Assembly: GCF_000014785.1 (NCBI RefSeq)
Contig: NC_008340.1
Location: 3,090,001-3,122,000, forward strand
Length of the DNA: 32,000 nucleotides
Source of the DNA: Alkalilimnicola ehrlichii MLHE-1
GTDB lineage: Bacteria; Pseudomonadota; Gammaproteobacteria; Nitrococcales; Halorhodospiraceae
Reading direction: 5' to 3'
A program made the translations under genes and the position numbers. Shown piece by piece: positions 4,661 to 19,732 of this stretch. How positions within the stretch are numbered: position 1 is the stretch's first letter; each line of letters opens with the position of its first letter. Below the pieces are notes generated by a model that was not told where the DNA came from, ran no database searches, and saw nothing but the letters and a program-made list of their open reading frames with translations.

Positions 4661-5041
4661 ATGAGTCATTCCCCCGTATCCCGCGTCACCGCCACCGAGG
4701 CGGCGCTGGAACTCATCGACGAACTGCGCGCCCAGCATGGTGAGTTAATGTTCCACCAGTCCGGCGGCTGCTGCGACGGCAGCTCACCCATGTGTTATCC
4801 GAGGGGCGAATTCCGCATCGGTCAGAGCGACATCTTGCTCGGCGAGATCGGTGGCTGTCCTTTCTACATGAGCGAGTCCCAATTCGAATACTGGCAACAC
4901 ACCCACCTGATTATCGACGTTGTGCCCGGCCGTGGCGGCATGTTCTCGCTGGAGGGCCCCACGGGCAGACGTTTCCACACCCGTTCAAGGCTGTTCACCG
5001 ATGCCGAATGGACGGCATTGCAAGCGCAGGAGGGCCGCTGA
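4661..5041 (+). CDS. DUF779 family protein (commonly paired with aldehyde dehydrogenases)
   Basis: 126 aa with SD CAGGAGG. Motifs FHQSGGCCDGSSPMCY and VVPGRGGMFSLEG match what I recall of DUF779. Its position directly downstream of an ALDH is the classic context. Confidence 0.8.
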   Translation: MSHSPVSRVTATEAALELIDELRAQHGELMFHQSGGCCDGSSPMCYPRGEFRIGQSDILLGEIGGCPFYMSESQFEYWQHTHLIIDVVPGRGGMFSLEGPTGRRFHTRSRLFTDAEWTALQAQEGR

Positions 5042-5107: not shown

Positions 5108-7174
5108 ATGCGACCACTGACCCCATACCCCACCCTGGGTGTTCTCTCATCCCTGATCCTCGGCACCGCGGGCACCGCCGTGGCCGACACCACCCCATCG
5201 GCCGAGGCCTTGGAGCCTATCCAGGTCACCGCACCGCGCCTGGAGCGGGATTGGCTGGCAAACCCATCCGCCGTCGGCGTGCTCACGCCGGAGGACATCC
5301 AGCCCGGGCACCAGAATCTGCAGATGGATGAACACCTGAACCGGATCCCCGGCCTACAGATGCAAAACCGCTACAACTTCTCCCAGGATTTGCGGGTCTC
5401 CATCCGCGGCTTTGGCGCGCGCGCGCCCTTCGGTATCCGGGGGCTGCGGGTAATCGTGGACGGGATCCCCGAAACCCTCCCCGACGGGCAGTCCCAAGTG
5501 GACGCCATCGACCTGGAATCGCTGCACCAGGCCGAGGTCATCCGCGGCCCCAGCTCAACCCTTTACGGCAACGCCGCGGGCGGCGTGCTCGATCTCCGTA
5601 CCCAAAGCGGCCGGGATATCGACGGCGCCGCGGTCAAGCTGGATTACGGCAGCGACGACTTCCGGCGCATCGGCCTCAAGGCGGGCGGCGGCCAGGGGCC
5701 TTGGGAGTACAGCGTCAGTACCTGGGATATGCGCTACAACGGCTACCGGGATCACAGTCGGGTGGAGAAGCGCCTGTTCAACAGCAAGCTGGCCTATGAA
5801 TGGGCTGATGGCGGACGCCTGGAGACCATCGTCCGCCTGTTGGATGCCCCGGACACCCAGGATCCGGGCTCCCTGACCCTGGACCAAGTGGATGAGGACC
5901 GCCGGCAGGCACGCCCCGAGTCAAAGGCACTGGATGGCGGCCAGTCCGCCGAGCAGCAGACGGTGGGCCTGGTCTACTCGCGTCCCATGGCCGCCCAGGA
6001 CGAAATCACCCTGCGCGCTTTCTACACCCGCCGCGATTTCGGCAATCGACTGCCCTTCGAGAGCGGTGGTCAGGTTCAGTACGAGCGCGACTTTTACGGC
6101 CTGGGCGGCCAATACACCCATCTCAACGAAGTGATGGGGCGCCCCGCCCGGCTCGGCGTAGGCTTCGACGCCGAGGAACAGCGCGACGACCGCCAGCGCT
6201 TTGACAATCTGGCCGGCGGGGCGCGCGGTGACCAGACCTTCGACCAGCGGGAAAAGGCGCGGACCCTGGCGCTCTTCAGCCAGGGCGATCTCGCCCTGAC
6301 CGACCGGTTGGACCTCGTCTTCGGAGCGCGCTTCGACCAACTGCGCATCGCCGTCGATGACCGATTCCAGCCGATGGGTGAAGACCGCTCCGGGCGTGAG
6401 ACCTTCAACGAGTGGAGCTACAGCACCGGTCTGAGCTACCGCTGGGCCCGCGCCCACCAGATCTACGCCAACGTCGGCACATCCTTCGAGAGTCCCACCT
6501 TCACCGAGTTCGCGAATCCCGACGGTGGCACCGGGTTCAATCCCGACCTGAAACCCGAAAAGGCCGTCAACTACGAGCTGGGCGCCAAGGGGTTCATCGG
6601 CGATCACAGCCGTTACGAGCTGTCGCTTTACACCATTCGCGTCCGCGATGAGATCGTTAATTTCCAGCGGGACGCCGGTCGCGACTTCTACGAGAACTCA
6701 GGCCGTTCCCGCCGTAACGGCCTGGAACTGGGCCTGGAACACCGCCCCGCAGACCAATGGGTCCTGACCGCCGCCTACACCTACACCGACTTTGAGTTCC
6801 GCGACTTTGAAGACCGGTTCGGTAATGACTTCAGCGGCAACGCCTTCCCCGGCGTCCCGCGCCAACAGTTATTCGCCGAGGCGGCGTGGCAGGATCGCGA
6901 GGGCCGCTTTGCCGCCCTGGATGTCGTTGCCGTTGACCGGCAGTACGCGGACAACGCCAACGAGGAGCGGGTATCGGGCTACGGGGTCGCCAACCTCCGC
7001 GCCGGCACCCGGCTAAGGCTGCAGGGCCTGGAGGTCTCGCCCTATGTGGCGGTGAACAACCTTTTCGACAAAGAGTACTTCAGCAACATTCGCATCAATA
7101 CCTTCGGCGGGCGCTTTTATGAGCCCGCCCCCGAGCGCACTGTCTTCGCCGGCGTTACCATCCGCCCCCGATAG
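5108..7174 (+). CDS. TonB-dependent receptor, YncD/PqqU-like subfamily (candidate PQQ or metal-chelate importer)
   Basis: 688 aa. Signal peptide ...GTAGTAVA, TonB-box-like EPIQVTAPR. Plug region PGLQMQNRYNFSQDLRVSIRGFGARAPFGIRGLRVIVDGIPETLPDGQSQ...VIRGPSSTLYGNAAGG. C-terminal NLFDKEY...GRFYEPAPERTVFAGVTIRPR. The subfamily call rests on remembered resemblance to E. coli YncD and is not computed. Confidence 0.85.
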   Translation: MRPLTPYPTLGVLSSLILGTAGTAVADTTPSAEALEPIQVTAPRLERDWLANPSAVGVLTPEDIQPGHQNLQMDEHLNRIPGLQMQNRYNFSQDLRVSIRGFGARAPFGIRGLRVIVDGIPETLPDGQSQVDAIDLESLHQAEVIRGPSSTLYGNAAGGVLDLRTQSGRDIDGAAVKLDYGSDDFRRIGLKAGGGQGPWEYSVSTWDMRYNGYRDHSRVEKRLFNSKLAYEWADGGRLETIVRLLDAPDTQDPGSLTLDQVDEDRRQARPESKALDGGQSAEQQTVGLVYSRPMAAQDEITLRAFYTRRDFGNRLPFESGGQVQYERDFYGLGGQYTHLNEVMGRPARLGVGFDAEEQRDDRQRFDNLAGGARGDQTFDQREKARTLALFSQGDLALTDRLDLVFGARFDQLRIAVDDRFQPMGEDRSGRETFNEWSYSTGLSYRWARAHQIYANVGTSFESPTFTEFANPDGGTGFNPDLKPEKAVNYELGAKGFIGDHSRYELSLYTIRVRDEIVNFQRDAGRDFYENSGRSRRNGLELGLEHRPADQWVLTAAYTYTDFEFRDFEDRFGNDFSGNAFPGVPRQQLFAEAAWQDREGRFAALDVVAVDRQYADNANEERVSGYGVANLRAGTRLRLQGLEVSPYVAVNNLFDKEYFSNIRINTFGGRFYEPAPERTVFAGVTIRPR

Positions 7175-7337: not shown

Positions 7338-7465
7338 CCCGATTTCAGCCGGTTCGCGACCCGACGCCGGCCCCCCATCGCCAAGGACAGCCCCCTCGCC
7401 ACGGCCCCGCCCCGCGTCATTCTGACGCACCTTGAGCGCCATCTCCGAGCACCCAAACGCAGAGC

Positions 7466-7481
7466 TGGCATAGCTGTTGCT
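7466..7481 (+). promoter_or_regulatory. Sigma-54 (-24/-12) promoter for the PQQ alcohol dehydrogenase operon
   Basis: TGGCAT-AGCTG-TTGCT is a near-perfect match to TGGCAC-N5-TTGCW. It lies 80 nt upstream of the ATG at 7561. Confidence 0.75.
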
Positions 7482-7560
7482 TGAAGGACGTTGCGGGCTG
7501 GCCACCAAGCCATCCAATTGCCTGGCAACGAAAAAAGAGATGAGAGGAGAAAGGCGAACA

Positions 7561-9369
7561 ATGACTACCGTAAAGCACAACCTGCGCATAGCGCTGATCC
7601 CGGCCACCGTGGCCGCCGTCGCCCTGGGGGCCGGATGCGCCACCGCGGGCAGCCACGGAAACGGGGACTTCCCCGAAAGTATCACCCAGGCGATGATCGA
7701 CGCCGACTTCCACCACAACGACCGCATCCTGACCTACGGCCAATCCCCCGAAGGACAGCGTTACAGCACCCTGGACAAGATCAACCGGGACAATGTGCAC
7801 GCCCTCACCCCGGCCTGGGCCTACTCCTTCGGCGGTGAACAGCAGCGGGGCCAGGAAAGCCAGACCCTGGTGTATGACGGCGTGATCTACGTGACCGGCT
7901 CTTACTCCCGCATGTGGGCGGTGGATGCCCGCACCGGCGAGCGGCTCTGGCAGTACGCCCACCGCCTGCCCGACGGCATCATGCCCTGCTGTGACGTGGT
8001 CAACCGCGGCATGGCCCTCTACGACGACCTGGTCATCTTCGGCACCCTGGATGCGCAACTGGTGGCCTTGGACCGGCACACCGGCCGGGTCCGTTGGCGC
8101 GACCGCATCGCCGACTACCGGGCTGGCTATTCCTACACCGCCGCACCGATGATCGCCAACGATCTGTTGATCACCGGCAACTCCGGAGGCGAGTTTGGCG
8201 CCGTCGGCGAAGTGCAGGCCCGCGACCCGAAGACCGGCGACATCGTCTGGACCCGCCCGGTGGTGGAAGGTCACATGGGCACGCTGCCGGATGGCAGTGA
8301 GACCATGACCGGCGAGCTGAACGCAACCTGGGAGGGTGAGGCCTGGAAGACCGGCGGTGGCGCCCCCTGGCTGGGCGGCACCTATGACCCGGAGCTCAAC
8401 CTGATCTACATCGGCACCGGCAACCCGGCCCCGTGGAACGCCCACGCCCGCCCCGGTGACAACCTCTACACCTCCGCCACCGTGGCCCTGGATGCCGACA
8501 CCGGGGAGATCGTCTGGTACTACCAGACCACCCCCAATGACCACTGGGATTACGACGGCGTCAATGAGCTGGTGCTGTTCGACTACGAGCACAACGGTGA
8601 GACCGTCAAGGCCGGTGCCAAGGCCGACCGCAACGGCTTCTTCTACGTGATGAACCGGGAGAACGGCGAGCTGCTGCTGGCCGAACCCTTCGTGGAGAAC
8701 ATCACCTGGGCCAGCCATATCGACATGGAGACCGGGCGCCCGGTCGAAATCGAGGGCGGCCGCCCGGGCAACCCGGCCGACATGGAGGGCGACCGGGGCG
8801 AGGCCGTGACCGCCCAGCCGGCCTTCCTTGGCGGCAAGAACTGGAGCCACATGTCCTACAGCCAGCGCACGGGCCTGTTCTATATCCCCTCCAACGAGTG
8901 GGAGATGGAGATCTGGAATGAGCCGGTGGACTACCGTCGCGGTGCCGCTTACCTGGGTGCCGGCTTCACCATCAAGCCCATCTACGACGACAAGGTCGGC
9001 GTACTGCGCGCCCTCGACCCGGCCACTGGCGAGATTGTCTGGGAAGTGCCCAACCGCTCGCCGCTCTGGTCCAGCGTGCTCACCACCGCCGGCGGCCTGG
9101 TCTTCTACGGCACCCCCGAGGGCCACCTGAAGGCCATGTGCGATGAGACCGGGGAGGAGCTCTGGAGCTTCCAGACCGGTTCCGGGATCGTCGGCCAACC
9201 GGCCACCTGGGAGATGGACGGCGAACAGTATATCTCCGTGGTCTCCGGCTGGGGCGGCGCGGTGCCGCTCTGGGGCGGGGAGGTGGCCCCGCTGGTCCGC
9301 CATATTAGCCAGGGCGGCATGCTCTGGACCTTCAAGATCTCCGACCTGGCCGCGGAGGCCGGCCTGTAA
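7561..9369 (+). CDS. Periplasmic PQQ-dependent alcohol (ethanol/methanol-family) dehydrogenase, type I quinoprotein, with the lanthanide-type D-x-D signature
   Basis: The track ORF starts at 7477. I prefer the ATG at 7561 (SD GAGAGGAGAAAGG), which gives [31 protein letters not shown] as signal. The vicinal disulfide motif PCCDVVNRG is at C143-C144 (7987-7992). [13 protein letters not shown] aligns with MxaF TPHDEWDYAGVN. Propeller W-motifs occur throughout. Confidence 0.92.
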
Positions 9370-9387
9370 GGCCGAGCCCGCACGAAG

Positions 9388-9414
9388 GGCCCGGTGCCGC
9401 CGCAGCACCGGGCC
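9388..9414 (+). other. Perfect 10-bp intercistronic stem-loop between the ADH and cytochrome c genes
   Basis: GGCCCGGTGC-cgccgca-GCACCGGGCC. No clear U-tract follows (gttctgg). Likely a processing/stability element or partial terminator. Confidence 0.5.
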
Positions 9415-9469
9415 GTTCTGGCCCGGCGCCAGCATGCAGTGACCTTCAACGTATTAACGGTGCAACACC

Positions 9470-9916
9470 ATGGCTACTAGAACGACTAAGCGACTTCTGC
9501 AGACCGCCGTGGCCGGCGCGATGCTTGCGACAGGGATGGCCCTCTTCGCCCATGGCGATGTGAACCCGCAACCGGTGGATACCGGCGACCTACCGGAACT
9601 GGACGACTGGAAACTGGAAAACCCCTTTCGCGACGCCGATGAATCTACGCTCAACGAGGCCATACGCATCGGCGAGCGCGGCTACCAGGCCAACTGTGCC
9701 GTCTGCCACGGTCTCGGCGGCGCCTCCGGTGGAATCGCCCCGGACCTGCGCCTGCTGGAACCCGGCTTCGACGACGAATACTACGTTCAGACGGTTCGCA
9801 AGGGTCGCGGCGCCGGCATGCCGTCGTTCGACGGCGTACTGAGCCAGGAGGCCATCTGGGCCATTTACACCTGGCTGAACACCATGCACGAGGAGGCGAT
9901 GGATGAATACTACTGA
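9470..9916 (+). CDS. Cytochrome c550-type electron acceptor for the quinoprotein dehydrogenase (ExaB/PedF-like)
   Basis: 148 aa. Signal peptide ...MALFA/HGD. A single heme motif CAVCHG (9695-9709) and a distal Met in GRGAGMPSF. It sits immediately downstream of the PQQ-ADH. Confidence 0.85.
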   Translation: MATRTTKRLLQTAVAGAMLATGMALFAHGDVNPQPVDTGDLPELDDWKLENPFRDADESTLNEAIRIGERGYQANCAVCHGLGGASGGIAPDLRLLEPGFDDEYYVQTVRKGRGAGMPSFDGVLSQEAIWAIYTWLNTMHEEAMDEYY

Positions 9917-10919
9917 TCTGATCAAGGCCGGCCGCCTGGCCGCCACCGCCGCCCTCTGCGGTGCCACGCTGTTCGCCGGTAGCGCGAACGCCGAGCGGCT
10001 GCACGAGATCCGCGACCGCGGCACACTGACCGTTGCCCTGTACAACGACTTCGGGCCCTACTCCTGCGTCGGCACCGGCGGCGAGCTGATCGGGGTTGAC
10101 GTGGCCCTGGCCCGCGCCCTGGGCGAGAAGCTGGACCTGAAGGTGGAGCTGGCCGGCTTCGGCGCCCAGGACAGCATGGACCAGGACCTGGCCCTGCTGC
10201 AGGACGAACAGGCCGAGGACGAGTGGGACGAGGCCCTGCTCGAGCGCGCCCCCGACCTGATGATGCACGTACCGGTGGACCCCGTCTTCCAGGAGCGCAA
10301 CGCCGATTACGACATCATGGGCGCCTACTTCCACGAGGCCATGGCGGTGCTCTACGACCGCGAGGAAATCGGCGATCTGGGGTACTCGGTGAACACCCCG
10401 GACCCGTTCGATGGCCTGCGCGTGGGTGTGGAGATGTACACCTACTCCTACACCATGCTCACCAACGGCTTTGACGGCCGCCTGCGCTCCGGCGTGGTCA
10501 ACCACAAGAACGTGCCCGAAGCAGTGGAGGCCCTGCTTGCCGGTGAGACCTCCGCGGTTTTCGCACCGCGCGGCGAGCTTCAGAGCGCCCTGGCCGCCTT
10601 CCCCGAACCGCGCACCAGCCTCGCCCTGAGCGAGCTGCGCGACCTGTTCCGCACGGACCGGGTGCGTAGCGACTGGGACGTGGGCATGGCCGTCAAGGCC
10701 GGCAACCCGGAGCTCTCCCGGGCAGTCGAGGAGGCCATGGCACAACTGGTGGCCGACGGGACCGTGGAGCGTATCTTTAACGAATACGGCATCGCCTGGG
10801 TGGGCCCGGGGGAGGAGTACCGCCTAGCCCGCAACGGCAATGGCCCCGCGGGCGTGACCCGCACCGGCCTGGAACGCGCGCAGCTCTGCCGGGCAACAAT
10901 GCCGGCCGGACTGTACTGA
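9903..10919 (+). CDS. Periplasmic family-3 substrate-binding protein, MoxJ/MxaJ-like (quinoprotein-dehydrogenase-associated)
   Basis: 338 aa. It overlaps the cytochrome c stop by 14 nt, which suggests coupling. Signal peptide ...FAGSANA, then RDRGTLTVALYNDFGPYS typical of PBP type-2 domains. An acidic insertion DSMDQDLALLQDEQAEDEWDEALLER is present. No cognate permease or ATPase is adjacent. Confidence 0.7.
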   Translation: MNTTDLIKAGRLAATAALCGATLFAGSANAERLHEIRDRGTLTVALYNDFGPYSCVGTGGELIGVDVALARALGEKLDLKVELAGFGAQDSMDQDLALLQDEQAEDEWDEALLERAPDLMMHVPVDPVFQERNADYDIMGAYFHEAMAVLYDREEIGDLGYSVNTPDPFDGLRVGVEMYTYSYTMLTNGFDGRLRSGVVNHKNVPEAVEALLAGETSAVFAPRGELQSALAAFPEPRTSLALSELRDLFRTDRVRSDWDVGMAVKAGNPELSRAVEEAMAQLVADGTVERIFNEYGIAWVGPGEEYRLARNGNGPAGVTRTGLERAQLCRATMPAGLY

Positions 10920-10951: not shown

Positions 10952-11719
10952 ATGAGGGTATCCCCGCACTTGCTACCCCTTTGCTTGCTTCTGGCAGCGG
11001 CGCTGGCGGCTCCGGCCGCCGCTGGCGTCGAGGAGGATCCACTGGGTTCGCCGGGCTGGCACTTGTCCAAGGCCCGCTATTTCCAAGGCGAAACTTATGT
11101 CTTCGCCCACGACAAGGTCCAGGTGATTGCACCGGATAGTGCCGAGGACACCTTCCAGGTCCCCGGTTTCGTCCGCGTCGAGGGGCTGGGCAACGTACGG
11201 CGGCTGATGGTCTTCACCGACCTCAACCCCATCCCGAAGATCCTCGACATGGAGATACCGCGCGGCGCGCCCAATGTGGGCTTCCGGTTCAAAGTCGAGC
11301 AGGCGACGGCCCTGCGGGCCGCGGCACAGACCGAGGACGGCGTCTGGCACCTGGGGGGCACCTGGATCGACGCTGCCGGCGGCGGCTGCAGCGCACCGAG
11401 CATCGCCAGCGCCGATCCAGCCTGGGAGAGCCGGTTGGGCGAAATCCGCGGCCGCACCTGGCAGCGGGAGGGCAGCCAACGGGTGCGCTTCAGCCTCCTG
11501 CACCCCATGGATACCGGGCTTGCCCCTGGAATCCCCGAGTTTTACCTGGAAGAGCTGGAGGTCCGGGACGGCAATGACCAGACGCTGGCCCGCATGGAGA
11601 TCCACGCCTCCATGTCGGAGAACCCCCATCTGACCCTCGACCTGGAGCACCGGGGTACAACACGACTGGTCGGTCGTGATAACAACGGCAACCGCTTCGA
11701 GGGGACCCTGCAGCCATGA
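10952..11719 (+). CDS. Fused SoxY-like/SoxZ-like periplasmic carrier protein with an internal GGGC cysteine motif (quinoprotein-associated)
   Basis: 255 aa with SD GGGAGGA and signal peptide ...AAPAAAG. The N-domain ends in WIDAAGGGCS (Cys146, codon 11387-11389), resembling the SoxY C-terminal GGC carrier motif. The C-domain has SoxZ-like LLHPMDTG and SMSENPHLTL. Cys146 is the only Cys outside the signal peptide. Confidence 0.7.
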   Translation: MRVSPHLLPLCLLLAAALAAPAAAGVEEDPLGSPGWHLSKARYFQGETYVFAHDKVQVIAPDSAEDTFQVPGFVRVEGLGNVRRLMVFTDLNPIPKILDMEIPRGAPNVGFRFKVEQATALRAAAQTEDGVWHLGGTWIDAAGGGCSAPSIASADPAWESRLGEIRGRTWQREGSQRVRFSLLHPMDTGLAPGIPEFYLEELEVRDGNDQTLARMEIHASMSENPHLTLDLEHRGTTRLVGRDNNGNRFEGTLQP

Positions 11720-12693
11720 TGGAATACCCACTGCAAGCGCCTTTCCTTCGGCTGGCGGCGATGGCGCTAGGCCTCCTGACCATTGGAGCTGCCAACGCGG
11801 GGGGAATCTTTTACGGCCTGCAGCCGCAGCAGGTCGCCGATGGGGTGTACATCTTCGAGGGTCGCCAGGAACACTTCACCCGGCGCAATGGCGGCAATAT
11901 CGTCAACACCGGCTTTGTGATCACCAGCGCCGGGGTGGTGGTATTGGACACCGGGCCGTCCCGGGCCTACGGGGAGGAGATGCGCCGCGCGATCGCACAA
12001 GTCACCGATCAACCCATCCACAGTGTCTACCTGACCCACCACCACCCCGATCACTTTCTGGGCAACCAGGCCTTCGAGGATGTCCCCATCTGCGCCCTGC
12101 CCTACACCCGCGAGATGATCGAGCGGGACGGCGAGGCGCTGCTGGACAACATGTATAACCTGCTCAGCGGCTGGATGGGCGGCACCTATGTGGTGGCGCC
12201 GGATTGCACCGCCGAGCCAGGGCCTGTCACCGTAGGCGAACGCACGCTTGAGGTCATCGCCGGCGCCGGGCACAGCGGCCCCGAGGCCTCTGACCTCATG
12301 CTCCACGACCAGCGCAGCGACACCCTGTTCGCCGGCGACCTGGTCTTCTACGACCGGGCGCCCACCACCCCCCATGCGGACCTCTCCCGCTGGGTCGCGC
12401 TGCTCCATGAGTTGGAACGGGAACTGCCCCGAACACTGGTGCCAGGTCACGGCCCCGTCACCCGCGACGTCGAGGCCGTGCTGCAGACCCGTGACTACGT
12501 GGAGTGGCTCGCCTCCGCCCTGCGCGAAGCGGCGGAACAGGGCCTGGACATGGCCGAGGCACTGGAGTTGGAGGTGCCGGAACGCTTCCGCCATCTGGCA
12601 GTGGTGGACGAAGAACTGCGCCGTTCGGTGGCGCACCTGTACCCGGGTTACGAAACCCAAGCATTGAACCAAGTCATTGATGGTCTGCAATAG
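11716..12693 (+). CDS. Periplasmic metallo-beta-lactamase-fold zinc hydrolase (quinoprotein-cluster-associated)
   Basis: 325 aa. ATGA overlap with the upstream stop. Signal-like N-terminus ...LTIGAANAGG. HxHxDH motif THHHPDH (12037-12054). Downstream GAGHSG and LVPGHG are metal-ligand-like His. Confidence 0.8.
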   Translation: MMEYPLQAPFLRLAAMALGLLTIGAANAGGIFYGLQPQQVADGVYIFEGRQEHFTRRNGGNIVNTGFVITSAGVVVLDTGPSRAYGEEMRRAIAQVTDQPIHSVYLTHHHPDHFLGNQAFEDVPICALPYTREMIERDGEALLDNMYNLLSGWMGGTYVVAPDCTAEPGPVTVGERTLEVIAGAGHSGPEASDLMLHDQRSDTLFAGDLVFYDRAPTTPHADLSRWVALLHELERELPRTLVPGHGPVTRDVEAVLQTRDYVEWLASALREAAEQGLDMAEALELEVPERFRHLAVVDEELRRSVAHLYPGYETQALNQVIDGLQ

Positions 12694-13318
12694 CCGCCAC
12701 CATCGCGAGGGCAAGGGGTGGCGCCGCTCAGGCACCGTGCCGGCCCTGGTCGTTTGCGGGCTACTGCTCAGCGGGTTGCTAATCCCGGGTGTGGCCGCGA
12801 CGGTGGACGATGCCGATGACCCCATCTGGCACCACCCGCACATCAACGCCGAGGGTTACCGTTATGCCCGCTACCGCGCCGCGACACCGGACTCTGTGCC
12901 GGAAGGGGAGACGGTGGATACCGGCCGTGCACAAGCCCTCTGGGCCGCCGGGGAGGTCGTGGCCATCGATGTGATGCCGGTCCTCGAACGGAAAGGACCG
13001 GACGGGAAGCCGGAGTGGGTGGTGCTGGAGGAACGCCGGCACATTCCCGGAAGCATCTGGCTACCCAACGTGGGCGCGGGGCGGCTGAGCCCAGAAATGG
13101 AGGCCTGGTTCGCCGATGCCCTGGCGGAGTTGACCGCCGGTGATAGCAACCAGCCGCTCCTCTTCTACTGCATCACGGATTGCTGGATGGCCTGGAACGC
13201 GGTGCGCCGCGCGGCCGCCCTGGGTTACACCTCGCTCTACTGGTACCCGCCGGGGGCGGATGGCTGGCAGCGGGCGGGGCTGCCGACGGAACCTGCCCAA
13301 CCGAAACCACGACACTAA
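12680..13318 (+). CDS. Periplasmic rhodanese-like protein with a C-x3-C-W motif (PQQ-catabolism-associated CXXCW-type family)
   Basis: The track ORF starts with TTG at 12677. The ATG at 12680 overlaps the MBL gene end. Signal peptide ...LLIPGVAATV. Motif LLFYCITDCWMAWNAVRRAA (Cys164/Cys168/Trp169, 13169-13186). The family assignment is from memory of genomic-context families. Confidence 0.6.
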   Translation: MVCNSRHHREGKGWRRSGTVPALVVCGLLLSGLLIPGVAATVDDADDPIWHHPHINAEGYRYARYRAATPDSVPEGETVDTGRAQALWAAGEVVAIDVMPVLERKGPDGKPEWVVLEERRHIPGSIWLPNVGAGRLSPEMEAWFADALAELTAGDSNQPLLFYCITDCWMAWNAVRRAAALGYTSLYWYPPGADGWQRAGLPTEPAQPKPRH

Positions 13319-13327
13319 CAGGTCATT

Positions 13328-13636
13328 ATGCGCACAACCAACCACTTGGCCCTTGCCATGACCCTGCTGCTCGCCGCCGGCCCGGCCCTGGGCGATGACG
13401 GGGCAGACGGTGCGGAGCGCTACCGTGACGGCATGATCGGTCGCATTGAGGCCTATGCGGTCTACAAGATGGGGGATTACGAAGGCGCCTTCCGCCGTTT
13501 CCTCCAGATGGCCCTGGCGGGGGACCCGGCCGCCATGGAACAACTGGCCACCCTCTACGAGCGCGGCCAGGGTATGGCGGCCCCGGATCCAGTGGCGGCA
13601 GAGGCGTGGCGCGGACGGGCCCGGGAGGCCGACTGA
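13328..13636 (+). CDS. Small secreted Sel1/TPR-like repeat protein
   Basis: 102 aa. Signal peptide ...AAGPALG/DD. Sel1-like repeat LAGDPAAMEQLATLYERGQGMAAPDPVAAEAWRGRA. The SD is weak. Confidence 0.55.
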   Translation: MRTTNHLALAMTLLLAAGPALGDDGADGAERYRDGMIGRIEAYAVYKMGDYEGAFRRFLQMALAGDPAAMEQLATLYERGQGMAAPDPVAAEAWRGRAREAD

Positions 13637-13831
13637 TGAACCGAACATGGATATAAAATATATTCTTTTTCCGACCAACTATACAGTCGGCGTAAAAGTC
13701 CGGTTATAGTAACCGAACAGGGATAATAAAAAGGTGCACGAAGCCGACCAAAACGCTTTACAACGCCTTTCGAAGCGGTACCGGTGCCCCACCAGAACAA
13801 CAGTCACAGGGGCGACCGGCAGGAGGAGAGA

Positions 13832-15820
13832 ATGTCATCGATTATCGCCCCGATCTCCTTGGGACGCGCCTCTGAGGGCGGATACCCCAGCCCCCTCCCG
13901 GGCGACAAGGCGCAGCGCCTCATTTCCAAGAGTTGGCAGCGTTGTCAGGCCTACGGCCTCGACCCCCGCAAAAAGCCAAAGGACGCCAACGTGCTGGAAG
14001 GCCCGCAGGTAAAGGAAGAGCGGGAGCGTCACGGCGAGCTGCTGAAAGTGGCCAACGCCGAGATGCACAGCCTTTACCAGCAGGTCTCCGGGTCCGGCTG
14101 GTCCCTGCTGCTCACGGACAACCGCGGCGTGATCCTCGACTACGTGGGAGACCCGAACCTGCGGCGTGAATTCCGTTCGGCGGGCCTGTGGCTGGGTGCC
14201 GACTGGAGTGAACGCCACGAAGGTACCAACGGCATCGGCACCGCCCTCACTGAGAGCCGCCCGGTGGCAGTACTGCGGGACCAGCACTATAAGGCGTGTC
14301 ACCACGCGCTGAGCTGTTGCGGGGCCCCCATTCTGGACGCCAACGGCCAGGTGATGGCCGTCCTGGACGCCTCCACCGTGAACGGCAATCAGACGCCGGA
14401 GACCCAGAGCCACACCCTGGCACTGGTCACCCTGTCCGCCCAGTTCATCTCCAAGTGGCGGTTCCTGGAGGAATTCTCGGATGCCATCATCATCCGCTTC
14501 CACAGCCGCTGCGAATATGTCGGTCTGATCAATGACGGTGTGCTGGCGGTCTCCCGGGACGGCACCATCGTTGGTGCCGACCACAACGCCTGCGTCTTCC
14601 TGGGACTCCCCGACCGGCATCGCCTCATCGGCTGGCCCATTGACCAGGTCTTGGACATCCGTCCGGAGATCCTGGTGGAACGGGCCGAACGCCCGTACCT
14701 CCCCTACTGGGTGCTCACCACGGCCCAGGGCACCCAGTTGCACGCCCGTATCCAGCTGGGGCACACAGCAGCGGGCCGCCGGGCGGCGGAACAGCCCGCC
14801 CGCCCCGTACCGGTCCAAAGCCGCAGTGCCAGTCAACCCCGCGATCACCGCGCCACGCTCTGCACCCTGGAGGCACTCAAGGGCAATGACCCGCGCATGG
14901 CGCGCAACGTTAACCGGGCCTACCGGATCATCGATAAGGACATCCCCATCCTGTTGAACGGCGAGACCGGCACCGGCAAGGAACTGTTCGCCCGCGCCGT
15001 GCATACGGCCAGCAGCCGCAGGGACGGCCCCTTCGTTGCCGTGAACTGCGCCTCGATACCGGAGCCCCTGATCGAGAGCGAGCTGTTCGGCTACAAGGGT
15101 GGCGCCTTTACCGGCGCCGACCGCAACGGGCGCAAGGGCAAAATCCTCCAGGCCCACGGCGGCACGCTGTTCCTGGACGAGATCGGGGATATGCCGCTGG
15201 AACTGCAGGCCCGCCTGCTGCGGGTCCTGGAAGAGCGCGAGATCGTGCCCATCGGCGGTGACAAACCACAGGCGGTGGATGTCTACCTGGTCTCGGCGAC
15301 TCATCACAACCTTCCGGAGCTGGTGGCCGAGGGGCGCTTTCGGGAAGACCTTTACTACCGACTCAACGGCCTCACCCTGACCCTACCCCCGTTGCGCGAC
15401 CGGGCTGACTGCCAGGATGTCATTCGCTGCATCCTGCGACTGGAGAGCGATGGCCGGGTGGATATCGATCAGGCGGCGTTGGCGGTGCTGCGCAACCATC
15501 CCTGGCCCGGCAATATCCGCCAGCTACGCAACGTGCTGCGCACCGCCGTTGCGCTCAGCGATGGCGAGACGCTCACGGTGGAAGACCTGCCCGACGATGT
15601 GCTGGATGCCGCTGAGACAGCCGGCGACGACCAGGTGATAGAGGGCACCTGCACCGGCGGCGGCGACCCGTTGGCCAACGCCGAGCGCCGGGCACTCCAA
15701 GCCGCCCTGGAGCAGCACGGCGGCAACGTCAGCCGCACTGCGGAGAGCCTGGGCGTGAGCCGTAACACCCTCTACCGGAAGATGCGGCGGCACGGTCTCG
15801 GCGGCGCCCGCGGCGGCTGA
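13832..15820 (+). CDS. Sigma-54-dependent transcriptional activator, AcoR-like (N-terminal GAF-type sensor, AAA+ core, Fis-type HTH)
   Basis: Start moved to the ATG at 13832 (SD AGGAGGAGAG). Walker A GETGTGKE, sigma-54 contact loop GAFTGA (15101-15118), ESELFGY and Walker [10 protein letters not shown]-terminal [25 protein letters not shown]. Confidence 0.9.
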
Positions 15821-15864: not shown

Positions 15865-17112
15865 TCAGTGGGCGGGCTCCAACCGATAGAGCCCCCCCGA
15901 CTCCTCATCCGTGAGCAGGTAGAGCCGGCCGTCCGGCCCCTGCCGCACATCCCGGATGCGCCCGAGGGTGCCGTCGAGCAGGAGCTCCTCGTGGACCACG
16001 CGGTCGCCCTCCAGCACCAGCCGGTGCAAGCGCTCCTCGGCCAGCGACCCGGCAAACAGATCGCCCTGCCAGCCCGGCACCTCATCACCGCTGTAGAAGG
16101 CGAGCCCTGAGGGGGCCATAGAGTAGTCCCAGTAGTGGACCGCCGGGGTCACGCCGGGGGCGGACCGGCCAATGCCGACCTGCTCGTCGGTGGAGTACTC
16201 GGTGCCGTAGGCCACTTGGGGCCAGCCGTAGTTGTTGCCGGGCTCGATCCGGTGGATCATGTCGCCGCCCCGGGGCCCGTGCTCGCTGGTCCAGATCTCA
16301 CCGGTCTCCGGGTGGATGGCCAGGCCCTGGTTGTTGCGGTGACCGAAGGAGTAGATCTCCGGCCGCAGGTTGCCCGGCGCCATGCCCACCAGCGGGTTGT
16401 CCTCGGCGGCGCCACCATCCTCGTTGAGGCGGATCATGGACCCGGCCGGATCGGTCAGATCCTGCGAGGGGGCGCGCAGGCCGCTGTCGCCGATGGAGAA
16501 GATCACGGTGCCGTCGCCCGGAAAGACGATCCGCGAGCCGTAGTGCCGGCCCGGGGCGGTGCGGGGCATCTGCACGTACAGCGTCTCCAGGTCGGTGAGC
16601 TGGCTGCCGTCGTCGCTCAACCGCGCCCGGGCCAGGGCGGTGCCGCTGCCAAACTCGGCGTCGCCGATGACCGCGTCCGGATCCCCCGGGCTGGAATAGG
16701 TCATGTAGATCCAGCCGTTGTCCTCGTAATCGGGGTGGACCGCCAGATCGAGCAGGCCGCCCTGCCAGCTCGCCTCCAGGGCCAGACCGTCGCGCTCCTC
16801 GGGGTTCACCCGGGGGGTATTACCCACGCGGGTGATGTCATCGCCATCCACCAGCCAGAGGCGGCCGGGGCGTTCGGTGACGAGCTTGCGGCCATCGGGC
16901 AGCCAGGCCACCGCCCAGGGGTGCTCCAACCCCTCCAGCACCTGGACGACATCAAAGCGGGCCTGCTCGCTCTCGACCCCGGCGGCCACCACCTGGTCAC
17001 TGCGACTGACCTCCGCCAGCGCCGACAGGCTGGTCACCAGCAAGACCGCTGGGACCGCTGCCCCGACTACGCAGCGGGCTGGGGTCGTAAGGAATGAACC
17101 AGGCTGCTGCAT
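15865..17112 (-). CDS. Soluble PQQ-dependent sugar (glucose/sorbosone) dehydrogenase, YliI/Asd-like beta-propeller
   Basis: Start trimmed to the ATG at 17112 (SD GAGGAGG), giving MQQPGSFL... with signal ...LSALAEV. Motifs LEHPWAVAWLPDGR, GGLLDLAVHPDY, FSIGD, GHRNNQGLAIHP, EHGPRGGD, NYGWP and GRIRDVRQGPDGRLYLLTD. Confidence 0.85.
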   Translation of the reverse strand: MQQPGSFLTTPARCVVGAAVPAVLLVTSLSALAEVSRSDQVVAAGVESEQARFDVVQVLEGLEHPWAVAWLPDGRKLVTERPGRLWLVDGDDITRVGNTPRVNPEERDGLALEASWQGGLLDLAVHPDYEDNGWIYMTYSSPGDPDAVIGDAEFGSGTALARARLSDDGSQLTDLETLYVQMPRTAPGRHYGSRIVFPGDGTVIFSIGDSGLRAPSQDLTDPAGSMIRLNEDGGAAEDNPLVGMAPGNLRPEIYSFGHRNNQGLAIHPETGEIWTSEHGPRGGDMIHRIEPGNNYGWPQVAYGTEYSTDEQVGIGRSAPGVTPAVHYWDYSMAPSGLAFYSGDEVPGWQGDLFAGSLAEERLHRLVLEGDRVVHEELLLDGTLGRIRDVRQGPDGRLYLLTDEESGGLYRLEPAH

Positions 17113-17203
17113 GGTGCCTCCTCGGGTAGACCTATTGCCGGAATGTAACGGATAGCATAGCCACCCGACACCGGTCCGACAGGACGCCGCCCTTGGGAGG
17201 GGC

Positions 17204-18010
17204 TCAGTCCGCGTTGGGGAAGAACAATCGCTCGCCACGCAGGGTGTAGCGGGCGATGGCGCTCTGCCCGGTCTCGGAGAGCAGCCACTCGTGCCACTGC
17301 CGGGCCCGTTCGTGGTTCAGGTGGGGATGGCGTTCGGCGCTCAGCAGCAGGGTCCCGTACGGGTTGTGCAACGCCTCATCCCCCTGGAACAGGATCTCGA
17401 GACGCTGGCGGTTATCGAAGGCGACCCAGGTGGCGCGGTCCGACAGCACATAGGCATCCATGGCGGCGGCGGTATTGAGGGTGGGCCCCATACCGCCGCC
17501 CAACGCCCGGTACCAGCGCCCGGAGGGCGCGATACCGGCCGCTTGCCACAGCCGCTGCTCCGCCCGGTGGGTACCGCTGTCGTCGCCGCGGGAGGTGAAA
17601 GGCGCGCGGGCCCCGGCGATGCGCTGCAGGGCATCGGCGATGTCGTCGGCATGGCCCACATCCGCAGGGTCGTCTGCCGGGCCGATGAGGACAAAATCGT
17701 TGTACATCACATCGCGCCGCTCGACCGCATAACCGGCCTCGACAAAGGCCCGCTCACCGACAGGGTCGTGGACCAGCAGGCTGTCCACATCACCCCGCCG
17801 GGCAAGGGCGAAGGCCTGGCCGGTGCCCACGGCGATCACCCGCACGTCGATGCCCGTCGCCTCTGAGAATTTCGGGATGATGTGCTGGAACAGGCCGGAC
17901 TGCTCGGTGGAGGTGGTGGAGGCCAGGGTGATGTAATCCCGCGCCTGGGCCGTGCCCGCCAGAGTCAGCGCGGCCAGGCCGATGAGGATCCAACAAACGC
18001 TTCTGATCAT
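17204..18010 (-). CDS. tupA: Tungstate(/molybdate)-type ABC transporter periplasmic binding protein
   Basis: Start trimmed to the ATG at 18010 (MIRSVCWILIGLAALTLAGTAQA). ITLASTTSTEQSGL...VIAVGTGQAFALARRGDVDSLLVHD...RRDVMYNDFVLIGPADDPA matches the remembered TupA pattern (TTTS-type anion motif). Confidence 0.7.
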   Translation of the reverse strand: MIRSVCWILIGLAALTLAGTAQARDYITLASTTSTEQSGLFQHIIPKFSEATGIDVRVIAVGTGQAFALARRGDVDSLLVHDPVGERAFVEAGYAVERRDVMYNDFVLIGPADDPADVGHADDIADALQRIAGARAPFTSRGDDSGTHRAEQRLWQAAGIAPSGRWYRALGGGMGPTLNTAAAMDAYVLSDRATWVAFDNRQRLEILFQGDEALHNPYGTLLLSAERHPHLNHERARQWHEWLLSETGQSAIARYTLRGERLFFPNAD

Positions 18011-18070
18011 CCCCTGCCCTGTCGCCACGCTGCGCCCCTCCAAGCCGGCGCCCGGTCCGACGACCGGGCG

Positions 18071-18850
18071 CTACCAGACCAGCTCGCCCCGGGTGAAGGC
18101 GCGCGCCTCCGGGCTCCGGGGCCGTTCGAAAAAGTCCGCGACCGGCGTACGTTCCAACAGCCGACCGCCACAGATGAAGACCACCTCATCGGCCAGACGC
18201 CGGGCCTGGCCCAAGTCGTGGGTGGTCATCACGATCCGCGTGCCCCGGCGGTCGAACCCCGCCACCGCCTCCTCCACCGCCTTGGTGGCGGCCGGATCGA
18301 GCGCGGCGGTGGGCTCGTCCAGGAACAGCACCTCCGGCTCCAACGCCCAGGCCCGCGCCAGCGCCAGGCGCTGCTGTTCGCCACCGGAGAGCACCCGCGC
18401 CGGCCGCCGCGCCAGCGGCGCCAGCCCGAACCGGGTCAGTGCGGCCATGGCCCGCTCTCGCCGTTGACGCCGGCGGTAGCCCTGCGCCGCGAGGGCAAAG
18501 GTCACGTTGGCCAGTGCCGAGCGGCGCAGCATCACCGGACGCTGGAACACCATGGCCTGCCGGCGGCGCCGCTCCTCGGCCCGGCCTCCCCGGGGGCCGC
18601 GCCAGACCAGCTCCCCCTCGGTGGGCGTCAACAGCCCGTGGCAGATGCGCATCAGCAGGCTCTTGCCGGCCCCATTCGGCCCCATGACGATGGTCTTGCC
18701 GCGCCCGCCGATCCGCAGATCGACCCCCTGGAGCAGGGGCTGCCCCCGGTGGCGAAAGCCGATGCCCTTCAACTCCAGGGGCAGCAGGGCCGACTCGACC
18801 CGCCCGGCGGACTCCGGGCCCGGCCCCGCGTCTGACACTGGCTGCAACAT
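18071..18850 (-). CDS. tupC: ABC transporter ATP-binding protein of the tup system
   Basis: Walker A GPNGAGKS, signature LSGGEQQR, Walker B LFLDEPT. I prefer the ATG at 18850 (GGGAGG SD 7 nt upstream) over the track's GTG at 18856. Confidence 0.75.
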   Translation of the reverse strand: MLQPVSDAGPGPESAGRVESALLPLELKGIGFRHRGQPLLQGVDLRIGGRGKTIVMGPNGAGKSLLMRICHGLLTPTEGELVWRGPRGGRAEERRRRQAMVFQRPVMLRRSALANVTFALAAQGYRRRQRRERAMAALTRFGLAPLARRPARVLSGGEQQRLALARAWALEPEVLFLDEPTAALDPAATKAVEEAVAGFDRRGTRIVMTTHDLGQARRLADEVVFICGGRLLERTPVADFFERPRSPEARAFTRGELVW

Positions 18851-18852
18851 GT

Positions 18853-19551
18853 TCACGCCTCCCGCCGCTTGGCCGCCTCACTCACCAGGAAGGCGACGCC
18901 GTTCACGACCGCCACCAGGGTCAACAGGATGATGCCCAAACCCAGCGCCAGGGCGAGGTTACCCCGGCTGGTCTCCAGGGCGATGGCCGTCGTCATCACC
19001 CGGGTCACGCCGTCGATATTGCCGCCGACGATGAGCACCGCCCCGACCTCCGCGCTGGCCCGACCAAAGCCGGCCAACACCACCGTGATCAGGCTGAAGC
19101 GGGCATCCCACAACAGGGTGGGGATGGCCCGCCCCTTGGTGACCCCCAGCGACCCGAGCTGCTCGCCGTACTCCTGCCACAGGTCCTCAATCACCTGGCG
19201 GGAGAGCGCGGCGATGATGGGCAGCACCAGCACCACCTGGGCGATCACCATGGCGGTGGGGGTGAACAGCAGCCCGAACGGCCCCAACGGCCCGGCGCGG
19301 GAGAGCATCAGGTAGACCGTCAGCCCCGCCACCACCGGTGGCAGCCCCATGAAGGCGTTGAGGACCACCACGATCAGGCCCCGGCCCGGGAACCGCCAAA
19401 GCGCCACCACCGCCCCCAGGGGCAGTGCGATCAAGCTGGCGATCACCACCGCGGTCAGCGAGACCTGCAGGGAGAGGCTGACGATGCCCATCAGGGCCGG
19501 GTCAAGCCCGACGATGAGTTCCCAGGCGGTGGCGAAAGCGTTCGGCTGCAT
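18853..19551 (-). CDS. tupB: ABC transporter permease of the tup system (BPD-type inner-membrane component)
   Basis: Hydrophobic ~232 aa. Start taken as the ATG at 19551 (MQPNAFATAWELIVGLDP...) rather than the GTG at 19593. No clear SD for either start. Directly followed by the ATPase gene. Confidence 0.7.
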   Translation of the reverse strand: MQPNAFATAWELIVGLDPALMGIVSLSLQVSLTAVVIASLIALPLGAVVALWRFPGRGLIVVVLNAFMGLPPVVAGLTVYLMLSRAGPLGPFGLLFTPTAMVIAQVVLVLPIIAALSRQVIEDLWQEYGEQLGSLGVTKGRAIPTLLWDARFSLITVVLAGFGRASAEVGAVLIVGGNIDGVTRVMTTAIALETSRGNLALALGLGIILLTLVAVVNGVAFLVSEAAKRREA

Positions 19552-19732
19552 GACCAGGAAAGATAGTCGGAAAACGGCTGCACTGGGGCACACAGTCTGC
19601 CGACAACCGCTGCATCATGAAATGGAAACAGCCTTACAACGCGAATATGCAGGATAAGGGGCGGCCACCGCCGGCAGCGCGGGCGATGGCCGAAGCCGAG
19701 AGGAGAGGTGGATCAAGGGCGGGCGGGGGCCG

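Follow-up and report, generated by a model that had tools for sequence, protein, structure and literature searches.

What use would an alcohol-oxidizing operon have for a protein built like the substrate carrier of a sulfur-oxidizing Sox system? The question is raised by a 32,000-nt window of the Alkalilimnicola ehrlichii MLHE-1 genome (NC_008340.1; the window is the whole stretch of DNA that was analyzed, and all coordinates are given within it). The 3' part of an ethanol-oxidation operon holds genes for a fused SoxY-SoxZ-like carrier, a metallo-beta-lactamase (MBL)-fold hydrolase, and a rhodanese-fold protein with a CXXCW motif. These three genes are translationally coupled behind those for a pyrroloquinoline quinone (PQQ)-dependent alcohol dehydrogenase (ADH), a cytochrome c550, and a periplasmic binding protein. 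Our analysis points to a carrier that would work through a single cysteine, Cys146. In the most general form of this idea, an adduct formed on Cys146 would be released by the hydrolase, and we consider this core somewhat probable. Our favored reading is narrower and more tentative: the carrier, the hydrolase, and the CXXCW protein would form a Sox-style covalent relay serving the ADH, with an acyl group as the likeliest adduct. We regard that fuller version as possible, but short of probable.

The gene set itself is known and named. It has been discussed as PP_2677, PP_2678, and PP_2666 of Pseudomonas putida and as a clade called "SoxYZ-S2," and RefSeq already assigns the A. ehrlichii carrier and hydrolase to quinoprotein relay system families; the third protein is named only "rhodanese-like domain-containing protein." All three window proteins are 100% identical to A. 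ehrlichii MLHE-1 database proteins. In a 2026 review on the ped cluster, the three P. putida genes figure as uncharacterized and as conserved with lanthanide-dependent ADHs, and a 2024 study of SoxY in Thiodiazotropha symbionts, which named the SoxYZ-S2 clade and linked it to PQQ-ADH, soxH, and rhodanese genes, suggested that it may act in carbon metabolism. Because the module had already been annotated and discussed, an earlier reading of this DNA made from the letters alone (hereafter the sequence-only reading) overstated its novelty. What we add are counts over 62 related loci, fusions of the CXXCW domain, and the structural neighbors of the hydrolase. The window holds no new kind of object; it offers the operon in compact and fully coupled form, with three genes that overlap or abut, and thus a good experimental template. 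The module travels with lanthanide-type ADHs, enzymes of importance to volatile-carbon turnover, methylotrophy, and rare-earth biology. Knowing what the module does would tell whether a protein-borne thiol is a cosubstrate of periplasmic quinoproteins, repairs them, or shields them from sulfur nucleophiles, and would explain why the genes are retained beside PedH- and XoxF-type enzymes.

Carrier, hydrolase, and CXXCW protein

The module consists of three genes:

10952 to 11719, + strand: fused SoxY-SoxZ-like carrier (TIGR04557; Pfam SoxY and SoxZ)
11716 to 12693, + strand: SoxH-like MBL-fold hydrolase (TIGR04558; Pfam Lactamase_B)
12677 to 13318, + strand: rhodanese-fold CXXCW protein (TIGR03865; Pfam Rhodanese)

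The carrier gene runs 4 nt into the hydrolase gene, which in turn runs 14-17 nt into the CXXCW gene; the 212-amino-acid RefSeq form of the CXXCW protein implies a start at 12680. A 102-amino-acid open reading frame (ORF) follows after a gap of 9 nt. These distances bear out the overlapping or near-abutting frames that the sequence-only reading had described downstream of the genes for the ADH, cytochrome c, and the binding protein. The module proteins are predicted to be secreted, judging from their N-terminal sequences and from low-confidence N-terminal helices in the structure models. Antisense and alternative-frame ORFs within 10952-13636 had no Pfam match and were rejected as genes; such ORFs are typical of DNA with 66% GC.

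The carrier had been described as a fused SoxY-SoxZ-like protein whose only mature cysteine lies in a GGGC motif, and family models agree with that description. TIGR04557 is matched over its full length (1-226) with 215.6 bits against a cutoff of 140, while Pfam SoxY (86.9 bits) and SoxZ (36.8 bits) match residues 42-146 and 173-252, respectively. Apart from C11, which belongs to the signal peptide, the only cysteine is C146, within AAGGGCSAPS. Across 90 homologs with 44-79% identity, A141 and G143-G144-G145-C146 are invariant (90/90), the residues around Cys146 are all small (G, S/T, A, P, and S, in the pattern A-x-G-G-G-C-S/T-x-P-S), and HPMDTGL (184-190), AED, NP-P, and the usual SoxY/SoxZ hallmark positions are kept. 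In the AlphaFold2 model, which has a mean predicted local distance difference test score (pLDDT) of 92.9, two beta-sandwiches are joined by a lower-confidence loop, residues 142-155, that includes Cys146. The best Foldseek matches are Paracoccus SoxY (2ox5) and the Thermus SoxYZ-SoxB complex (4uwq), with template modeling (TM) scores of ~0.8 on the target. SoxY and SoxZ folds are both present, then, the parallel with Sox that had been drawn from the letters holds at the level of structure, and Cys146 stands out as the candidate carrier residue.

In canonical Sox systems, SoxY carries substrates on an arm cysteine, and the periplasmic thioredoxins SoxS and SoxW keep SoxY active. The A. ehrlichii protein resembles canonical SoxYZ in its folds and hallmarks, in having a single cysteine after a glycine run past the last SoxY strand, in having a metallohydrolase encoded beside it, and in having a thiol-redox partner. 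Unlike the canonical proteins, its Y and Z parts are fused, and its cysteine is internal (GGGC-S-A-P-S) rather than part of a C-terminal GGCGG. Furthermore, the oxidoreductase partner is a PQQ-dependent ADH, and the redox partner is a rhodanese-fold CXXC protein, not a thioredoxin of the SoxS/SoxW kind. The carrier also misses the true-Sox models, with 35.6 bits for TIGR04488 (cutoff, 125) and 28.6 bits for TIGR04490 (cutoff, 76), and none of soxAX, soxB, and soxCD was found among the annotated ORFs of the window. On these grounds, we rejected canonical sulfur oxidation as the job of the module here.

The hydrolase passes TIGR04558 (quinoprotein relay system zinc metallohydrolase 1) with 392.7 bits against a cutoff of 300, scores 65.7 bits with Pfam Lactamase_B, and has the HHHPDH motif for which it had been called a zinc MBL-fold enzyme at residues 108-113 (H108-H-H110-P-D112-H113). 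Seven residues that together make up a complete predicted binuclear metal site, H108, H110, D112, H113, H186, D208, and H245, are invariant in 62 homologs. Because all seven ligands are kept, a hydrolase is favored over a mononuclear-iron dioxygenase, and persulfide dioxygenase was rejected as an identity. The nearest structures to the model (pLDDT 95) are an uncharacterized MBL of Burkholderia cenocepacia (8d2z), chlorothalonil dehalogenase (6uxu), and B2 and B1 beta-lactamases; alkylsulfatases come lower in the list. The Burkholderia protein has SHYHAVRV where the window enzyme has THHHPDHF and so is without HxHxDH; it is uninformative on substrate. Several hydrolase homologs are labeled "uncharacterized sulfatase" by JGI.

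The third protein passes TIGR03865 (PQQ-dependent catabolism-associated CXXCW motif protein) with 185.4 bits against a cutoff of 128 and Pfam Rhodanese with 34.1 bits against 22.2, as would be expected of the rhodanese-like CITDCW protein that had been recognized from its letters. The motif, C165-I-T-D-C169-W, occupies residues 165-170; among 29 homologs from related loci, conservation of C165, D168, C169, and W170 is 98% or higher. C165 aligns with the active-site-loop cysteine of the Escherichia coli rhodanese YgaP, and the second cysteine lies four residues after this first one, which takes the rhodanese catalytic position. The protein is probably a thiol:disulfide or sulfur-transfer partner.

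All three window proteins therefore belong to the quinoprotein relay families represented by PP_2677 (TIGR04557), PP_2678 (TIGR04558), and PP_2666 (TIGR03865) of P. putida KT2440, each passing its cutoff. They share with that system the fused SoxY-SoxZ architecture, the internal GGGC cysteine, the HxHxDH hydrolase, the CXXCW motif, and the siting beside genes for a PQQ-ADH, cytochrome c550, and a binding protein, and nothing essential differs. Two features set the window apart. Its CXXCW gene is coupled directly behind the hydrolase gene, an arrangement seen in 15/62 related loci, whereas that of Pseudomonas lies ~5 kb away on the opposite strand, and an extra small, nonconserved ORF stands at the end.

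Taken together, an invariant single cysteine on a SoxYZ scaffold, a co-inherited and fully liganded hydrolase, and a constant siting with ADH and cytochrome argue for covalent cysteine chemistry and release by hydrolysis, as in SoxYZ with SoxB. The pairing of a carrier with a releasing hydrolase gains support from Campylobacterota, in which SoxH-like hydrolases have been proposed, though not demonstrated, to release sulfate from SoxY-bound adducts.

Genomic context and domain fusions

How constant is this company? A scan of one genome per species found the module in at least 539 species-level genomes, from which 80 loci were retrieved; the context counts given here cover the 62 loci that have 6 kb or more of sequence on either flank and describe the closest relatives of the query. 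In 61/62 loci, the gene that immediately follows the carrier gene is that of the hydrolase. A type-I ADH is encoded within 10 kb in 60/62, in keeping with the co-occurrence with quinoprotein dehydrogenases on which the sequence-only reading had staked its interpretation. In 54/62 loci an ADH carries W-D-[YF]-D-G, in which the second Asp marks lanthanide-dependent enzymes, and 6/62 have only a Ca-type ADH with W-D-[FY]-S-G. PedF is present in 57/62 loci and a homolog of the binding protein, in the equivalent position, in 48/62; the CXXCW gene is adjacent to the hydrolase gene in 15/62. Clustering of ORFs over the 80 loci recovered the module genes, although the clusters were noisy and sometimes picked antisense ORFs. 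Ten further neighbor clusters were annotated, half of them as accessory to the ped cluster (ABC transporter parts, a YVTN propeller, a histidine kinase, and an ExbB-like protein) and five without a Pfam match.

In the window, the genes that precede the carrier are as follows:

7561 to 9369, + strand: type-I PQQ alcohol dehydrogenase, PedH-like (TIGR03075; W-D-Y-D-G and P-C-C-D)
9470 to 9916, + strand: cytochrome c550 PedF/ExaB, electron acceptor of the ADH (TIGR04494)
9903 to 10919, + strand: family-3 periplasmic binding protein, PedG-type (Pfam SBP_bac_3)

The ADH scores 773 bits with TIGR03075 (methanol/ethanol-family PQQ dehydrogenase; cutoff, 480). Its frame is open from 7477, and the likely start is the ATG at 7561, which has a Shine-Dalgarno sequence. 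The enzyme carries W-D-Y-D-G, with the lanthanide-type Asp, and the vicinal cysteine pair P-C-C-D, and its best solved relatives are 6zcw and 6zcv (E = 1e-233), which we take to be PedH, ahead of ExaA (1flg). Its motifs and relatives thus place it with the lanthanide-type enzymes of the PedH/ExaF kind, an identity that the sequence-only reading missed. The cytochrome passes TIGR04494 (PedF) with 167.5 bits against 122. For the binding protein, which had been called MoxJ-like, the position stands and the family does not: it reaches only 17.5 bits with TIGR03871 (cutoff, 212), seven of its positional counterparts from other loci also miss that cutoff, and a comparison with the MxaJ chains of the PDB gave no match at E <= 0.01. 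We therefore rejected it as a MoxJ/TIGR03871 member.

Two further proteins accompany the module elsewhere. A second, divergent PQQ dehydrogenase, with ~31% identity to the window ADH, WGYD[VL]A in place of WDYDG, and CCGP, is encoded directly downstream of the hydrolase in four loci of Nevskia/Panacagrimonas type (L007, 11826-13502; L018, 11793-13421; L020, 11724-13352; L025, 11748-13367) and upstream of the carrier in another (L045, 8152-9786). A conserved secreted protein of ~189 amino acids, without a Pfam match but with a pair of conserved cysteines (FLSMRPFKCLPHP...C), is encoded between the binding-protein and carrier genes in Thiodiazotropha-type loci (L011, 9365-9931; L012, 9321-9917; L005, 9380-9934; and six more loci); it is absent from the window.

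The hosts of the module bear on a different account of what Cys146 might hold. Sulfite, thiosulfate, or sulfide could attack PQQ or the strained disulfide of the ADH; the rhodanese-like protein and the carrier would then take up the sulfur as a persulfide or S-sulfonate on Cys146, and the SoxH-like hydrolase would release it in the manner of the thiosulfohydrolase SoxB. All three families come from the sulfur-oxidation toolkit, SoxH-like proteins are the ones proposed to hydrolyze SoxY-S-sulfonate, and both the alkylsulfatases among the structural neighbors of the hydrolase and the JGI sulfatase labels fit. In Hyphomicrobium denitrificans, thiosulfate is reported to inhibit growth on methanol but not on formate. 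The listed loci are mostly from Gamma-, Beta-, and Alphaproteobacteria, and many of the hosts are sulfur oxidizers, such as Alkalilimnicola, Thiodiazotropha, and Thiothrix. However, bacteria that do not oxidize sulfur, among them Pseudomonas, Thauera, and Azoarcus, conserve the module just as well. The wide miss of the true SoxY model and the lack of sox partners among the annotated window ORFs also speak against this account, as does the loop of the CXXCW protein, in which C-I-T-D-C-W replaces the arginine-containing CRxGxR type usual for rhodaneses. In one locus (L027), genes for a SoxF/FccB-like flavoprotein, a SoxY-like protein, and SoxZ (7404-9479) stand directly upstream of the carrier, hydrolase, and CXXCW-thioredoxin genes, with no ADH within 10 kb. 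This context fits a sulfur-handling module, but it is a single case, and overall we consider sulfur processing or protection improbable.

The main new evidence of our analysis comes from fusions of the CXXCW domain. An exhaustive search of 1.8 billion cluster representatives returned 1373 CXXCW relatives, and the best 150 of them, checked with Pfam and NCBIfam, contained three kinds of fusion; a word-indexed homolog search with the same protein had given 24 matches and no fusions. In the first kind, the partner is a binding protein of the MoxJ family that passes the TIGR03871 cutoff, found in five independent representatives at 50% identity (P0287, P0299, P0346, P0377, and P0396). In the second, the partner is thioredoxin-like (P0269 and P0274). 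Such a domain, with its own CQFC motif, also stands C-terminal to CXXCW in the two loci that have no ADH within 10 kb (L024, 11697-12707; L027, 11672-12670), and it is fused or adjacent to CXXCW in three Thiodiazotropha or Chromatiales loci (L011, L013, and L016). The third kind, found once, joins CXXCW to a complete PQQ-ADH (L083, 6513-8705), at the position that the window CXXCW gene has, after the ADH, cytochrome c, binding-protein, SoxYZ, and MBL genes. Since there is no second signal peptide at the junction, this fusion is genuine. Through these fusions, CXXCW has a physical link with domains of thiol-redox type, with accessory proteins of the ADH, and with ADH itself.

The fusions lend new, indirect support to an alternative that the sequence-only reading had raised, namely, upkeep of the disulfide formed by the ADH cysteine pair. 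The module would then work on the enzyme and not on metabolite flux. While the cofactor is being loaded or afterward, CXXCW would form, open, or re-form the strained Cys171-Cys172 ring (numbered C143-C144 from the mature start) that stacks on PQQ, a binding-protein chaperone would hold the pocket open, and the carrier cysteine would strip adducts or mixed disulfides from ADH cysteines or PQQ and then be cleaned by the hydrolase. Besides the fusions to MoxJ-family proteins, to thioredoxin-like domains, and to a whole ADH, there is a precedent in MxaJ, which opens the PQQ pocket of MxaF, with the Cys103-104 ring region being rebuilt on PQQ binding (PMC12276312). As in MxaJ/XoxJ maturation, a binding-protein homolog directly follows the ADH and cytochrome genes. 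The module also tracks lanthanide-type ADHs, and according to the 2026 ped review it is missing, together with pedG and pedA1A2BC, from Pseudomonas aeruginosa, which has only the Ca-type enzyme. That review, which suggests disulfide formation, cofactor stabilization, or protection of PQQ from sulfur nucleophiles, favors ideas of this sort, and the minimal phenotypes that it describes for P. putida homologs on alcohols, in lanthanide-free transposon sequencing with random barcodes (RB-TnSeq), fit an accessory role.

Maturation or repair of the ADH active site is thus a close rival, yet it offers no natural role for a strictly conserved binuclear hydrolase that is the most constant partner of the carrier. 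Ca-type enzymes, which have the same Cys-Cys ring, do not need the module in order to mature, and PedH made in E. coli is active after addition of PQQ and lanthanum. We know of no thiol carrier or hydrolase in Mxa maturation, and the protein encoded beside the window carrier falls below the MoxJ/TIGR03871 cutoffs. Moreover, judging from the gene table of the ped review, in which PP_2666 adjoins the lanthanide-linked PedA1A2BC system in P. putida, TIGR03871 probably corresponds to PedA1 of this ABC system, so the fusions may point to it and not to a chaperone of the ADH. In six loci the only ADH is of the Ca type, and in two there is no ADH. Weighing both sides, we find this explanation possible but rather doubtful.

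The same association with lanthanide-type ADHs, in 54/62 loci, could also mean that the module handles PQQ or a lanthanide en route to the enzyme, for example, through a reversible thiohemiketal between Cys146 and the C5 carbonyl of PQQ or through an MBL enzyme that hydrolyzes a lanthanide chelator. The C5 of PQQ adds nucleophiles. A PqqU-related TonB-dependent receptor is encoded directly upstream of the ADH in the window, TonB receptors occur in 11 related loci, and the binding protein to which CXXCW is fused is probably of the PedA1 type. But no acidic metal-binding motif stands out among the invariant residues of the carrier, which are the usual SoxY/SoxZ hallmarks, the release of a lanthanide needs no thiol chemistry, and six loci have only Ca-type ADHs. 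Cofactor trafficking is, in our view, very unlikely.

Proposed chemistry on Cys146

What, then, might the carrier carry? For the covalent relay that we favor, we infer the following steps. The thiol of Cys146, on a slender loop of small residues, would take up a covalent adduct, and the group bound to this arm would be offered to the active sites of partner proteins. The adjacent binuclear MBL hydrolase would cut the Cys-X bond and restore the free thiol. The CXXCW protein would keep the thiol/disulfide state of the carrier, and possibly the Cys-Cys ring of the ADH, correct in the oxidizing periplasm. In the ADH-linked modules, X would most economically be an acyl group derived from the aldehyde product: a thiohemiacetal formed on Cys146 would be oxidized to a thioester at PQQ, and the thioester would be hydrolyzed to the acid.

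This aldehyde-to-thioester version is plausible in that every component receives a role and the chemistry is sound. PQQ-ADHs oxidize hydrated aldehydes, and both aldehyde dehydrogenase (ALDH) and glyceraldehyde-3-phosphate dehydrogenase (GAPDH) use a thiohemiacetal-to-thioester route. The invariant binuclear site of the hydrolase, the small residues of the Cys146 loop, and the sharing of one operon with the ADH and its cytochrome speak for it as well. The scheme also resembles glutathione-dependent aldehyde detoxification, with which the sequence-only reading had compared it, in its thiol adduct, its oxidation to a thioester, and its hydrolytic release, and the MBL fold and the ligand set HxHxDH...H...D...H are common to the window hydrolase and glyoxalase II. 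Unlike in the glutathione route, the proposed thiol is a periplasmic protein cysteine, the proposed oxidant is PQQ, and the hydrolase is not a glyoxalase II member. Full-text literature searches, which had most subscription journals outside their reach, turned up no prior statement of the thiohemiacetal idea. What had been observed from the letters is confirmed, and the interpretation built on it is partly supported. Of the results that the sequence-only reading had named as refuting it, three were looked for and not borne out: a carrier lacking SoxY/SoxZ folds, a GGGC cysteine that varies among homologs, and a missing genomic link with quinoprotein dehydrogenases.

Taken to its conclusion, the scheme would make the carrier, the ADH, and the hydrolase a split periplasmic aldehyde dehydrogenase. 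Cys146 would add to the aldehyde as it leaves the ADH; the lanthanide-PQQ centre would oxidize the protein-bound thiohemiacetal to a thioester, passing two more electrons to cytochrome c550; and the MBL enzyme would hydrolyze the thioester, with CXXCW keeping the carrier thiol reduced. We think this unlikely. If true, it would be covalent catalysis of the ALDH/GAPDH type spread over separate proteins and would give a quinoprotein, for the first time known, a cosubstrate in the form of a protein-borne thiol.

A number of findings weigh against the relay. Cys146 is on an internal loop and not on a free C-terminal arm as in SoxY, which limits its reach into the buried funnel of the ADH. The aldehyde made by the ADH has a conventional route, since a cytoplasmic ExaC and a DUF779 protein are encoded upstream. 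In 2017, Wehrmann and colleagues reportedly found PedE and PedH to oxidize aldehydes in vitro without a carrier, and PedH produced in E. coli to be active. In 2/62 loci (L024 and L027), the module is without an ADH inside 10 kb, and CXXCW is encoded within 10 kb in only 25/62. The hydrolase reaches 21 bits with the glyoxalase II model TIGR03413, whose cutoff is 200.8, and its 50 top-ranking structural matches include no glyoxalase II; with only the generic ligand motif in common, we rejected it as a glyoxalase II. The RB-TnSeq phenotypes described above are minimal. Finally, full-text searches of the same reach found annotation and hypotheses only for the three families, and no biochemistry, in line with the statement of the sequence-only reading that they were named from genome context; for the Methylobacterium extorquens homologs, too, there was nothing beyond annotation and hypotheses. 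We hold the full relay to be tentative and place more confidence in its generic core.

Neighboring genes and promoter-like elements

On the + strand, the genes run in the order exaC, DUF779, TonB receptor, ADH, cytochrome c550, binding protein, carrier, hydrolase, CXXCW, 102-amino-acid ORF, and sigma-54 activator. The features that flank the module and its ADH are as follows:

3025 to 4545, + strand: ExaC cytoplasmic acetaldehyde dehydrogenase (NF050026, 973 bits; cutoff, 900)
4661 to 5041, + strand: DUF779 protein (DUF779 model, 170.9 bits)
5108 to 7174, + strand: TonB-dependent receptor, PqqU-related (NF041535, 438.9 bits, below the equivalog cutoff of 1200)
7466 to 7481, + strand: sigma-54-type -24/-12 promoter-like element, TGGCATAGCTGTTGCT (one mismatch to TGGCAC-N5-TTGCW; consensus match only)
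13328 to 13636, + strand: small ORF for a predicted secreted protein of 102 amino acids with a weak single Sel1-like repeat (Pfam Sel1, below cutoff)
13784 to 15820, + strand: sigma-54-dependent transcriptional activator (Pfam Sigma54_activat, 225 bits; HTH_8 domain)

The small ORF had been counted as a fourth, Sel1 repeat member of the module, and in this respect the sequence-only reading does not hold. Its single repeat scores 14.8 bits with Pfam Sel1 (E = 0.045; cutoff, 30.7), it has no NCBIfam match, and homologs occur in only 2/80 related loci (L001 and L039). Being below threshold and not conserved, it was rejected both as a Sel1 protein and as a member of the module.

The activator encoded at 13784-15820 is the probable regulator of the operon, and homologs of it occur near the module in several related loci. 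The promoter-like element at 7466-7481 lies ~80 nt upstream of the ADH start codon, and a second match with one mismatch (2873-2888, + strand) lies ~150 nt upstream of exaC. Both elements would fit control by this activator, but matches to TGGCAC-N5-TTGCW at two or fewer mismatches number 17, against 15 expected by chance, so that their count is not above chance. Between 7000 and 14000, neither sigma-70 promoters nor intrinsic terminators rose above background on the + strand, and an Rfam scan of the whole window found no RNA family.

The PqqU-related receptor may import PQQ or a lanthanide chelate. A second PQQ enzyme is encoded beside the operon, on the - strand: the stretch 15865-19593 has the gene of a soluble glucose/sorbosone dehydrogenase (Pfam GSDH, 408 bits) and, following it, genes for a TupA/TupB-like ABC transporter of the tungstate type.

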